The notes under the pieces were generated by a model. That model was not told the DNA's origin. It was given only the letters and a program-made list of their open reading frames with translations, and did not search any database. From a virus (lineage: Duplodnaviria; Heunggongvirae; Uroviricota; Caudoviricetes), in the IMG/VR virus record IMGVR_UViG_2541047909_000004, positions 1 to 34,066 of that record: DNA of 34,066 nt, one strand, 5' to 3'. The first letter of the stretch is position 1. Each line of letters starts with the position of its first letter. Both the position numbers and the translations under genes were made by a program. This document shows positions 17,907-30,464 of the stretch, piece by piece.

Positions 17907-18083
17907 TGTTCATTCCACGGACAAAAACAGAGAAAGGAAACGACAGAGGCCAAAAAGCTCGCTTTCAGCACCTGTCGTTTCCTTTCTTTTCAGAGGGTAT
18001 TTTAAATAAAAACATTAAGTTATGACGAAGAAGAACGGATACGCCTTAAACCGGAAATTTTTCATAAATAGCGAAAACCCGCG

Positions 18084-27536: not shown

Positions 27537-28613
27537 ATGACAAAATCAATTTGTTTTTTTAATCATAAAGGTGGGGTAAGTAAAACCACAACAACCTTCA
27601 ATCTTGGATGGGCACTTGCGGATGAAGGCAAGAAAGTATTGATGGTTGACCTTGATTCGCAATGTAATCTAACAGGAATGGTTCTTGGCTATGAAAAGAT
27701 TGATGAGGGTTTAGATTCTTTTTATTCTAGCAGAGATAACTTAACTCTTGGACCTATTGTAGAATATTTGATTAATGGCGGACAACCTGAAGCATACCTT
27801 GAAAAAGAAACGGGAAAATTACACCCTACACTGCATGAAAACCTTCTGCTTCTTCCCGGACATTTAGATGTTTCGGACTTAGATTCACAGATAAGTGTTT
27901 CTCTAAAAATTGCTGCTGGTATTCCTGCTACAAGAAATATACCAGGGAACCTGCCAAAAATATTACAGCTAATCGCCATGAAGAATAATATTGATTACAT
28001 TCTTTATGATCTCAGCCCTAATGTTGGAGGTTTAAATGAAGTAGTTCTCATGTCAAGTGACTATTTTATCGTACCTGTAGCTCCAGACTTTTTTTGCTGG
28101 CAAGCAATTCGCTCTCTCTCAAAAAATATACCTCGCTGGCACAAAGAATTAGCATTATTTAAAGAAAATAATGATGGTAACTCTTCACAATCAATTAAAA
28201 ATGCACCGCAGTTTCTAGGTATGATTCAGCAGAGATACAGGCCGCGTAAAGGAGCACCTGTAAAATCTTTCGAAAAATGGATGGCAGCTATCCGTGATGC
28301 TGTTGATTCGATCTTAGTGCCAAATCTAGAAAAAATTACCTGCATAATTCCACGAGATAAAGTGCAACATGCAATTAACAAAACAACAGTCAGTGGAGAT
28401 TTATCAGCCTATGATCTTGCGCATATTTCCGATTTCAACTCATTAATCGCAATAAGCCAACAACTAGCGACACCTGTTTTCTCCATCAGTGATCAGCAAA
28501 TTCGCGATTCAGGGCAATTTGGGCATGCCTTAAATACAATGAAATCAAGCAGAGACGCCTTTAACGAACAATTTAAAGGGCTGGCTCAACGAGTTCTAGA
28601 ACTTACAAAGTAA
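27537..28613 (+). CDS. ParA/MinD-family ATPase (358 aa, deviant Walker A), low-GC moron in the rexAB-equivalent position
   Basis: FFNHKGGVSKTTTTFNLGWALADEGKKVLMVDLDSQCNLT Walker A; SD AAGGATAG; AT-rich gene and flanks; immediately downstream of cI on the same strand. Confidence 0.8.
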   Translation: MTKSICFFNHKGGVSKTTTTFNLGWALADEGKKVLMVDLDSQCNLTGMVLGYEKIDEGLDSFYSSRDNLTLGPIVEYLINGGQPEAYLEKETGKLHPTLHENLLLLPGHLDVSDLDSQISVSLKIAAGIPATRNIPGNLPKILQLIAMKNNIDYILYDLSPNVGGLNEVVLMSSDYFIVPVAPDFFCWQAIRSLSKNIPRWHKELALFKENNDGNSSQSIKNAPQFLGMIQQRYRPRKGAPVKSFEKWMAAIRDAVDSILVPNLEKITCIIPRDKVQHAINKTTVSGDLSAYDLAHISDFNSLIAISQQLATPVFSISDQQIRDSGQFGHALNTMKSSRDAFNEQFKGLAQRVLELTK

Positions 28614-28800: not shown

Positions 28801-28848
28801 ACAACAAATATCTACTTTTTGTTGTTGATTTTTGCTACTTTAAGTAGC
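28801..28848. promoter_or_regulatory. Candidate left operator/promoter region (inverted repeats sharing the CTACTT half-site)
   Basis: ACAACAAA...TTTGTTGT inverted repeat at 28801-28825 and GCTACTT-TA-AGTAGC at 28834-28848, followed by CATAAT. Confidence 0.4.
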
Positions 28849-29003
28849 AACATAATGTAAGCTATCACGGACAGGCAGGACGCCCACGAAGTAGCCGCCG
28901 GTGGCGTATGAATGACCGGATGATTCGTTAGCAACAAAAAAGCGCCCTACAGGACGCTTAGCTCTTTAACAATCTTAGTATCCCCGTAACAAAAGAGGGT
29001 TCT

Positions 29004-29297
29004 ATGGTCATATTCTGTGCTTACGTTCATCCTAATGGATTTTTTATCAGCACCAACCAACAAGACGAATTCTGGATTCTACTTAGTAAGCAGGTCGGAT
29101 GGGGACGATTCTGTCTAATCCGACCAGAATCAGAATTTACAGAGAATGGAGGGCTTTTTGAATTACGTGAAATACGTCCGGCAGATGGTCAAGCCCCTGA
29201 CCAAGTAATCGAATCGTCAGCTGTTTTATGGCGTCGGCAGGAAGCGTTCGAAGCTGAGAGAGTAATTTCTTCTTATCTTCAGTCGTGGCAGAAGTAG
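29004..29297 (+). CDS. Hypothetical protein (97 aa), first ORF downstream of candidate pL
   Basis: ATG preceded by AAGAGGG; overlaps the convergent 167-aa ORF by 161 bp, so only one may be fully real. Confidence 0.4.
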   Translation: MVIFCAYVHPNGFFISTNQQDEFWILLSKQVGWGRFCLIRPESEFTENGGLFELREIRPADGQAPDQVIESSAVLWRRQEAFEAERVISSYLQSWQK

Positions 29298-29640
29298 AAC
29301 TATTGATGATACGTTCAAGTTCACAGAGAGTCTCATCATGCAATCTTATTGTCATAATCCCAAGAATAGCTTTAAGACCTCCATCATCACGAATGAAATC
29401 AATTCCATCTTTAGTAATTCTTAATTCAGGAATATTTATATTTATGCCATCCAAGTAATAATCAAGAGCATTCTTAATCAAGCCATGTTCTTCGAGATAA
29501 ATTAAGTTCGAAATTAGGACATTATCATCTCCAAATGCGTCACGAACAGACTGCAACGCATCATCAGAAATTTCATAAGGATGAGCATCATACAGTATTT
29601 GTAACAACTGCCTTTGTGCACTTCTATCAAATTTGTCCAT
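29137..29640 (-). CDS. Hypothetical protein (167 aa), AT-rich, opposite strand to the early operon
   Basis: Long ORF with protein-like composition (MDKFDRSAQRQLLQILYDAHPYEISDD...); weak SD; no recognisable motif. Confidence 0.5.
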   Translation of the reverse strand: MDKFDRSAQRQLLQILYDAHPYEISDDALQSVRDAFGDDNVLISNLIYLEEHGLIKNALDYYLDGININIPELRITKDGIDFIRDDGGLKAILGIMTIRLHDETLCELERIINSSTSATTEDKKKLLSQLRTLPADAIKQLTIRLLGQGLDHLPDVFHVIQKALHSL

Positions 29641-29699
29641 CTTAAATAATCACCATGTTATTGGGGGTATCAAGATTAACCGAATCCTTGTTGTTGGGG

Positions 29700-30070
29700 A
29701 ATAACCAGGTCCACCTCGCCTGATGTGGCTAAAAGCAGGCACATAACAGCTAAGTATTTTCAACCAGAGAGAATCCTTAGCGTTGTGGTGAATGCGGCTC
29801 AGCGCACGCGGGTTAAGGTTGAGGCTGACAGTCGACCTTCTGTGGATACCCACCCGCCTGGTGTGCAACCTTCGCCAGGCACCGGGAGGCACCCGGCACC
29901 ACAACAGCCACTGCTTTGGCGGTACCAGTTTGTACACTTGCTTCCGGCTGGCACCGCTCTTTTTACAAAACAGAGAAGAGCATCACCGGACGACGGGCTC
30001 ATAACCCAATCCATCCGGGCGGCTGCCACCGCAGGTGTTCTTCTCTGTTTTGTGGAGAAACCAACCGACC
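29700..30070. other. GC-rich, ORF-poor island with extensive dyad symmetry (candidate structured ncRNA or cis element)
   Basis: 15-bp perfect long-range inverted repeat ACAAAACAGAGAAGA (29965-29979) / TCTTCTCTGTTTTGT (30039-30053); several local GC hairpins; short ORFs in all six frames. Confidence 0.4.
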
Positions 30071-30101
30071 TTGCAGGGTCGATATGATGAGGAGCAGCAA
30101 A

Positions 30102-30464
30102 ATGGCTAGCGAACGCAGTACTGATGTGCAGGCATTTATCGGGGAGCTGGACGGCGGCGTATTTGAAACCAAAATCGGCGCAGTTCTCAGTGAGGTCGCT
30201 TCCGGTGTGATGAACACGAAAACCAAAGGGAAGGTCTCACTCAATCTGGAAATCGAACCGTTTGATGAGAACCGTGTGAAAATCAAACACAAACTCTCAT
30301 ATGTTCGCCCAACTAACCGCGGGAAAATTTCCGAAGAAGACACCACCGAAACGCCGATGTATGTCAATCGCGGTGGTCGCCTGACTATTCTGCAGGAAGA
30401 CCAGGGACAATTACTGACTCTTGCCGGTGAACCTGACGGAAAACTCCGCGCAGCAGGTCGTTAA
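30102..30464 (+). CDS. Hypothetical early protein (120 aa; CPS-53 YfdP-like)
   Basis: ATG at 30102 with SD GAGGAG; MASERSTDVQAFIGELDGGVFETKIG... Confidence 0.6.
   Translation: MASERSTDVQAFIGELDGGVFETKIGAVLSEVASGVMNTKTKGKVSLNLEIEPFDENRVKIKHKLSYVRPTNRGKISEEDTTETPMYVNRGGRLTILQEDQGQLLTLAGEPDGKLRAAGR

Follow-up and report, generated by a model that had tools for sequence, protein, structure and literature searches.

In the leaders of the E. coli metY-nusA-infB operon and of lambda N, the first open reading frame (ORF) of an operon dependent on read-through is preceded by a tRNA or another structured RNA, by partial terminators and by a long hairpin for RNase III. Small RNAs (sRNAs) can also be formed by early termination of a phage operon transcript, as in StxS and the RNAs of the lambda 6S type, which arise at PR′/tR′ under the control of Q, while read-through occurs during phage development. 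Prophages express the related sRNAs STnc100 and PasD, which associate with Hfq, and EDL933 has 11 expressed copies, one of which was confirmed by northern analysis (PMC5331693; bioRxiv 10.64898/2026.05.13.724894). Here we describe a region of comparable organization at positions 29700–30070 of a 34,066-nt stretch of phage DNA (IMG/VR record IMGVR_UViG_2541047909_000004), the whole of which is called the window below. It belongs to the early-left operon leader of an SfV/ST64B-like E. coli prophage, which extends between the PL/OL region at ~28.8 kb and yfdP-…-xis-int. An earlier note, made from the sequence alone, had singled out this region as a GC-rich, ORF-poor island with a long-range inverted repeat. 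With moderate confidence we read the island as an untranslated, folded early-left leader transcribed from the plus strand, in which an STnc100-type sRNA module ending at the terminator D2 would be followed by D3, a processed RNA cargo related to members of tRNA arrays. The elements on which this reading is based are as follows.

29749–29781 (+): H0, a 5′ hairpin abutting D1, from the minimum free energy (MFE) fold.
29782–29905 (+): D1, a multi-helix cloverleaf-like domain, from the match to the Rfam STnc100 core and the conserved fold.
29918–29958, with the U-run at 29960–29964 (+): D2, intrinsic terminator geometry, a GC hairpin followed by U5.
29960–30058 (+): D3, a three-way-junction RNA; covariance model R1 scores 90.1 bits at 29979–30039.
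29965–29989 / 30029–30053, extendable to U29960–A30058 (+): helix P1 of D3, the long base helix of ~25 bp, which corresponds to the inverted repeat noted earlier.
29986–30018 and 30019–30032 (+): helices P2 and P3 of D3, from covariation.
29995–30007 (+): apical hairpin of D3, GGGCUCAUAACCC, equal to the tRNA-Met anticodon stem-loop.

The perfect 15-bp inverted repeat of the earlier note (29965–29979 / 30039–30053) was confirmed; in 2000 shuffles of the region no repeat was longer than 13 bp. It can be extended to 25 nt with 84% complementarity (29965–29989 / 30029–30053). Among the perfect hairpin-type repeats of the window it ranks second; the longest one, of 16 bp, lies at 17931–17946 / 17972–17987 with a 25-nt spacer. 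The single loop of ~59 nt that had been assumed between the arms was not borne out, as the repeat closes a three-way junction containing two covarying internal helices. The plus-strand RNA of 29700–30105 folds at −166 kcal/mol (z = −5.4), a value attained by none of 100 shuffles, while the fold of the minus strand is weaker (z = −3.9).

The first alignment of D3 comprised 18 leaders from ten genera, and 14 of its 24 predicted pairs showed double changes; U·G pairs were frequent. The core model R1, which consists of the inner 6 bp of P1, a P2 in which 7 bp are followed by an internal loop and an apical stem of 3 bp, and a P3 of 4 bp, was built from 18 leader copies only, because a joint MAFFT alignment with the late-operon copies misaligned P3 and P1; the model was then used to align the remaining copies. 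In the 18 leader copies 92% of the cells pair, and 10 pairs have double changes versus 3.3 in shuffles. The R1 search recovered the second class of D3, the late-operon copies that had not been used in building the model, full-length at 33–53 bits. Over 50 distinct D3 sequences, 94.2% of the cells pair versus 32–46% with the partners slid, and 142 cells are changed on both sides versus 33.9 in shuffles. Double changes occur in 14 of the 20 pairs, and each of P1, P2 and P3 has 4–6 covarying pairs. P1 together with P3 on the one side, and P2 on the other, could form two limbs of ~12 bp each. We concluded that D3 is a well-supported, widespread RNA structure family absent from Rfam.

The outer part of P1 discriminates between RNA and DNA. 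In 27 distinct leader copies its outer 20 positions comprise 399 Watson–Crick, 81 G·U and 8 A·C combinations; thus, the functional strand is the plus strand and the molecule is RNA, not a DNA palindrome. These positions are paired in 85–95% of the 27 sequences, giving the near-perfect double-stranded RNA of at least 20 bp, or about two turns, that constitutes the length criterion for RNase III. An element acting at the DNA level, that is, an operator or another protein-binding palindrome, a recombination site, a cruciform or a dispersed palindromic repeat of the ERIC/MITE kind, would agree with a long, nearly perfect repeat situated in a regulatory region beside the immunity genes. We consider such an element very unlikely: the excess of G·U over A·C is joined by covariation in the internal helices P2 and P3, the repeat sequence varies freely between phages with its pairing retained, and the operators of this phage differ in sequence from the repeat. 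Moreover, unlike ERIC or MITE elements, its copy number follows that of prophages (median 1, maximum 5 places per genome) and its context is fixed. The recombination site suggested in the earlier note was not supported in view of the same preference, the helix accepting G·U and not A·C.

The inverted repeats flanking a structured core also recall the a1/a2 repeats of retrons, and a resemblance to msr/msd had been pointed out, with the reservation that no reverse transcriptase was nearby. That reservation proved correct, since the annotation of an identical E. coli genome shows no reverse transcriptase within the surrounding 12.5 kb. As Rfam also has no family matching at threshold in the window, and the D3 core recurs in late-operon tRNA arrays, the resemblance was not sustained, and a retron-like RNA or any other template of a reverse transcriptase is barely credible here.

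Upstream of D3, H0, D1 and D2 resemble a known sRNA. At Rfam gathering thresholds the whole window gave no match. A permissive search returned one credible match, STnc100 (RF02076), at 29784–29903 on the plus strand (35.6 bits, E = 8e-6, model positions 31–147 of 206), and the D1 homologues of ST64B, phage P1 and a Buttiauxella prophage (L011) scored 33.4–36.9 bits over the same part of the model, so that four independent homologues match the family core. Nine D1 versions, including the STnc100 of Stx2 phage Min27, were folded one by one and have a single topology in common: a closing stem of 8–9 bp, a first hairpin after ‘AAU’, a central helix of variable content, a fourth helix and, as the last element, a 5-bp hairpin with the loop AGGCA (CCGGG-AGGCA-CCCGG), which directly adjoins the 3′ strand of the closing stem. 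D1 has in common with the STnc100/PasD core this stem, the GGUGAAU junction and the AGGCA-loop hairpin, whereas the inner hairpins differ and the flanks of the family (model positions 1–30 and 148–206) are not aligned by D1. The closing stem is retained by compensatory changes, being GUUGUGGUG/CACCACAAC here, GUUGCGGUG/CACCGCAAC in phage P1 and GCAUGGUG/CACCAUGC in Min27, and the last hairpin likewise alternates between CCGGG/CCCGG, GGUGG/CCACC and GCCGG/CCGGC; the changes in these two helices were seen in phage P1, Min27 and two further loci (L025 and L018).

The layout of the putative sRNA gene agrees as well. The STnc100 of Min27 (L240 3440–3672) begins with a 5′ hairpin, continues with the core and a spacer and closes with a terminator that ends CCUUUUUAC; positions 29749–29964 of the window have the same order of elements and end CUCUUUUUAC, both terminators finishing with UUUUUAC. 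The place of H0 is taken by a hairpin before STnc100 in Min27 and by a D3-like three-way junction in phage P1. D2 was present in all 17 related leaders examined, as a GC-rich hairpin 0–2 nt before a run of five to seven U residues; the stem sequences differ, and the folded upstream stretch ending in the hairpin has a total predicted energy of −19 to −35 kcal/mol. A simple terminator scanner missed D2 because its loop is longer than 8 nt. By the geometry of hairpin and U-run, D2 is a predicted intrinsic terminator. We read H0–D1–D2 as an STnc100-type sRNA module in an early-left leader, which was not filed as a member of STnc100 because it scored below the curated threshold; judged by its sequence, D1/D2 represents a novel version of an established kind of prophage sRNA. 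The STnc100/PasD copies lie downstream of Q/stx in the late operon, whereas D1 lies in the early-left leader. The likeness to StxS and lambda 6S consists in the early-terminated sRNA, the candidate being located here in the PL leader and not at PR′/tR′. In a few leaders (L009 2800–2860, also L033, L028 and L029) D2 is longer, and the 3′ half of its stem includes a mini-ORF together with a Shine–Dalgarno sequence, as in AGGAGGAUGAAGAUAGUGUUCUGA (MKIVF-stop). These longer versions might allow attenuation coupled to translation; the D2 of the window has neither feature.

The relationship of D3 to tRNA arrays emerged from its apical hairpin and from its second class. Over 13 nt, or 14 if the C before it is counted, GGGCUCAUAACCC is the same as the anticodon arm of an E. 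coli tRNA-Met gene, which we take to be that of the initiator tRNA and whose sequence has a 100% match in 5425 of the 5426 E. coli genomes. The 50 D3 sequences hardly vary in the flanking ACGG(G)CUCAUAA(C/U)CCAAUC, and some variants carry CUCAUUC, which breaks the purine-37 rule. In the second-class, or short-stem, copies P1 is only 6 bp long. R-CCA follows 11 of 15 short-stem variants, and in 10 of 17 loci the short-stem D3 is the last unit of a tRNA array, where it is separated from the tRNA before it by 6 nt (nine loci) or 8 nt (one locus), a spacing comparable to the 5–6 nt that separate the tRNAs from one another. Where the neighbours were identifiable, antiterminator Q lies upstream and holin/lysozyme downstream, an annotated example being Klebsiella phage GZ7. 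D3 has the apical hairpin in common with tRNA(fMet), and many of its short-stem relatives occupy a slot in phage tRNA arrays with tRNA-like spacing or are followed by R-CCA. It differs from tRNAs by the lack of a D-arm and of the T-loop consensus, by a P2 of 7 + 3 bp with an internal loop and, in the window copy, by the 25-bp base helix.

The same elements recur in other combinations. Phage P1 contains an unannotated tandem (AF234172 ~70018–70201; L003 2442–2625), in which a D3-like junction (34.7 bits) stands directly 5′ of a D1-like domain; it lies between upl and tciA, inside the ban operon with three tRNAs and a dicF-like region. In two Phytobacter prophages (L021 2722–2800 and L026 1186–1264) the D1 slot is occupied by a true tRNA (52.8 bits with Rfam), identified by ARAGORN as Ile with the anticodon AAU, whose unusually long acceptor stem GUUGUGGCG/CGCCGCAAC is the closing stem of D1. 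Phages mEp460 and cdtI and the Stx2c phages have only D2 and D3 in common with the window, while one Buttiauxella leader has D1 without D2 or D3, which indicates that the modules are exchangeable. We take this to suggest that such leaders carry RNA cargo that can be swapped and is enclosed by conserved stems.

Downstream of D3 the leader continues into the first gene of the operon through the following elements.

30052–30061 (+): GUGGAG(A/U)AAC motif after D3 (window: GUGGAGAAAC), present in nearly all related leaders.
30066–30081 (+): D4, a small hairpin between D3 and the yfdP ribosome-binding site, from the MFE fold.
30089–30094, Shine–Dalgarno sequence GAGGAG, with ATG 30102 to stop 30464 (+): yfdP, the first operon gene, from its translation, RefSeq ‘protein YfdP’ and PHROG phrog_204.

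These surroundings bring in a purely cis-regulatory leader, in which D2 would act as an attenuator and D3 and D4 would control the translation of yfdP or the stability of its mRNA, for example by blocking access to the GGAG motif or to the 5′ end, and no functional RNA product would be made. D3 is indeed situated directly between the terminator and the first ribosome-binding site, and the conserved GUGGAG(A/U)AAC can pair with the terminator U-run, the GGAGA, as read from the sequence, extending helix P1. The motif was also found in leaders without D3 (L011 and L023) and in Providencia. The Providencia leaders retain only the long hairpin, a ~20-bp structure of unrelated sequence at the place of D3 and without the junction; the long helix is therefore probably important in itself. 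Two Providencia prophages (L031, ~2600–2790, and L033) contain a csrA homologue within the yfdP leader, preceded by the same GGA-containing motif that follows D3, GUGGAGUAAU. From sequence, this motif and the ribosome-binding site might be CsrA targets. A role confined to yfdP is opposed by the D3 core of the tRNA arrays, which has a short stem and a CCA tail and lies at a great distance from any yfdP, and by that of phage P1, which precedes a D1-like domain; the core is consequently not tied to the yfdP ribosome-binding site. The near-invariant apical sequence also suggests recognition by a trans factor. On balance, the purely cis-regulatory explanation appears possible, though rather unlikely.

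Several candidate pairings of D3 were rejected. Pairing of the D3 loop with the yfdP Shine–Dalgarno sequence or start region was discarded, since homologues do not retain the complementary stretch. The upstream GCUGUGUGUAG motif, which had been considered as a partner of the 5′ arm of D3, is absent from the window and shows no covariation, and kissing between the UGCA loops of P3 and D4 is impossible with the window's own loops. D4-equivalent hairpins of homologues have different stems.

The observation that short ORFs occupy all six frames was confirmed: ORFs of at least 30 aa were found on the plus (29725–30087, 29792–30004 and 29916–30464) and on the minus strand (29650–29937, 29799–30029 and 29813–29911). 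A degraded or mis-called protein-coding gene would accord with the ‘hypothetical proteins’ that phage records annotate over the region and with the ORF matches to phrog_33599 (29725–30087, plus strand) and phrog_3651 (29799–30029, minus strand). The PHROG matches are short (37–41 aa), though, and lie on both strands of the same DNA, where they coincide with D3. The homologues contain insertions of 1, 2, 4, 25... nt in P3, D3 core lengths vary between 55 and 86 nt by amounts not divisible by three, the substitutions in the helices are compensatory, and RefSeq calls no gene there. The coding interpretation was excluded on the basis of the non-triplet indel lengths, the two-stranded PHROG matches and the covariation, and we regard it as extremely improbable. 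The Rfam and covariation analyses that the earlier note had proposed as a check were carried out, and covariation revealed a conserved structure while the homologues showed no degraded gene. Both PHROG families probably derive from mis-called ORFs over a conserved RNA, and the analysis thus points out families that are likely to be based on non-coding DNA.

Three elements upstream of the island bear on its transcription.

28810–28860 (+): OL/PL-type control region, from an operator-like match and its position in related phages.
28860–28934 (+): PL-proximal RNA element of 75 nt; model R2 scores 91 bits here.
29710–29742 (+): conserved 33-nt motif UCCACCUCGCCUGAUGUGGCUAAAAGCAGGCAC, present in many related leaders.

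The sequence CTACTTTAAGTAG at 28835–28847 is one mismatch away from both cI/cro operators (26588 and 26611), and the same position before the PL-proximal element is taken, in more than 50 related phages, by promoters whose operators differ. No sigma-70-like promoter closer to D1 was found on the plus strand. As predicted from these matches, the OL/PL-type region 28810–28860 most likely drives the leader. The PL-proximal element occurs in 53 distinct versions behind diverse PL promoters; its stem II covaries and its 5′ half is nearly invariant (CGAACAGGCAGGACGCCCACGAAGUAGCCGCC). Like HK022 putL, it is a conserved two-stem RNA directly behind PL and before intrinsic terminators (PMC9378689), and by position only it is a candidate put-like antiterminator. 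Homology to HK022 put was rejected, since model R2, run with the filters off, found no match at putL or putR and BLAST-short returned only chance words. Neither this element nor the 33-nt motif has an Rfam family. In phage LLS the motif lies ~12 nt after the PL −10 box. A pseudoknot was considered for it and dismissed, as its variants are almost without compensatory change and the sequence itself is conserved.

Under the favored reading, that of an sRNA module followed by a processed cargo, transcription would enter from the repressor-controlled PL region near 28.85 kb, ~1.2 kb upstream of the island. Part of the transcripts would stop at the U-run of D2 (~29964), yielding a ~200-nt STnc100-like sRNA with a terminator hairpin and a U-tail, and read-through of D2 would produce a transcript containing D3. 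By analogy with put, the PL-proximal element is rightly placed, as a candidate, to let the polymerase pass D2. D3 would then represent RNA cargo related to a tRNA-array member, and its ~25-bp duplex would be an RNase III-type substrate, whose cleavage would free the junction core and trim the 5′ end of the yfdP mRNA. In the late operons the short-stem form with R-CCA would be released by tRNA-processing enzymes. The order of RNA cargo, terminator, long hairpin and first ORF, here yfdP, is reminiscent of the metY-nusA-infB and lambda N leaders. The difference is that there is no sequence relationship, and that RNase III cleavage is predicted here from the helix length. No N/nut or NusA-type component was identified in this leader, where no search for boxA/boxB was made. 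A structured non-coding RNA at the PL-leader position, as the earlier note had envisaged, is thereby supported, and ‘sRNA’ and ‘processing element’, two of the roles it had listed, are the best current readings for parts of the region.

Several points weigh against this reading. The score of D1 (35.6 bits) is below the STnc100 gathering score of 47, and its early-left context departs from the late region typical of STnc100. The window copy of D3 has no CCA and does not stand in a tRNA array. ARAGORN, in bacterial and mitochondrial modes and with a relaxed score, identified no tRNA in D3 or in the short-stem copies, and neither was matched by the Rfam tRNA model even at E ≤ 10, by which D3 was ruled out as a member of the tRNAs; ‘tRNA-like’ describes its shape, context and one arm and is not a classification. 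ARAGORN likewise reported no tRNA in the whole window. The GGG/CCC apical stem of D3 is invariant and so has no covariation support. Some related leaders are without D3 or D1 (L011 and L008), showing that neither is essential for the operon. Continuous transcription from PL has to be assumed across a minus-strand gene (29137–29640) that lies between PL and the island. Finally, the data show the non-coding status, the strand, the three structures with their covariation, the modularity, the terminator geometry and the tRNA-array context of the relatives; we infer the promoter used, the termination, the read-through, the processing by RNase III or RNase P and any function in trans.

A more specific function can be imagined for the D3 core, which we put forward as doubtful: it may be an excised mimic of the initiator tRNA, made at lytic onset from the early-left and late operons and serving as a decoy or a ligand. 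Enteric VapC-type nucleases cut the initiator tRNA in its anticodon loop. As a decoy, the core would lure factors recognizing the anticodon arm of tRNA(fMet), for example VapC-type nucleases of enteric toxin–antitoxin systems. As a ligand, it would bind the 30S P-site, IF3 or MetRS and bias initiation towards phage messages. If it is true that the initiator-tRNA-like arm is recognized in trans, D3 would define a new class of phage tRNA mimic.

The leader is widespread. Several E. coli chromosomes contain the 511 bases surrounding the finding at 100% identity, and as a query these bases were matched in 2781 of 5426 complete E. coli genomes, that is, about half of them carry sequence matching this leader; in 1058 at least 80% of the query was covered. 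The copies were always in prophage context. The region is common, wholly or partly, to phages SfV, SfII, SfIV, ST64B, mEp460 and cdtI and to several Stx phages. A literature search on yfdP, ST64B sRNAs and tRNA-like lambdoid elements found nothing on this leader. D3, its largest element, connects the tRNA arrays of phages with the STnc100/PasD kind of prophage sRNA and with the long early-operon leaders of N-less lambdoid phages, three subjects that are mostly considered separately, and phage records annotate hypothetical proteins on either strand over it. Seed alignments for two new covariance models are provided.

The assignment of the island to the position of the lambda N/nutL region was right in terms of synteny, the order being cI-like repressor, morons, operator/PL region, leader and yfdP-yfdQ-yfdR-...-xis-int. 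In the simple relatives ST64B, LLS and phiNP, 630–990 bp between the repressor gene and yfdP are free of genes, which identifies the finding as the early-left leader at the place of PL-nutL-N in lambda. In an identical copy annotated in RefSeq, a cro-like regulator (−), an XRE/cI-like repressor (+), a ParA-family protein (+) and a hypothetical gene (−) precede an unannotated gap, after which yfdP, yfdQ, yfdR, a phage protein, yfdT, the integrase and tRNA-Arg follow. The GC richness held only in comparison with the AT-rich upstream flank: the GC content of 29700–30070 is 0.558 and that of 29137–29699 is 0.38, whereas yfdP has 0.507 and the window 0.491 (standard deviation 0.073), and 21% of equal-sized windows are at least as GC-rich. 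The region is therefore distinct only from its upstream neighbor, and the contrast claimed with both flanks did not extend to downstream yfdP or to the mean of the window.

Two neighboring genes look like moron insertions: the ParA-family gene at 27537–28613 (+), between the repressor gene and PL, and the gene at 29137–29640 (−; phrog_3983), which is antisense within the PL leader and has its own terminator at 28940–28959. On the cro side of the immunity region, phage ST64B (L119 21–97, −) contains a match to the sRNA isrK of 64.3 bits, above the Rfam threshold.

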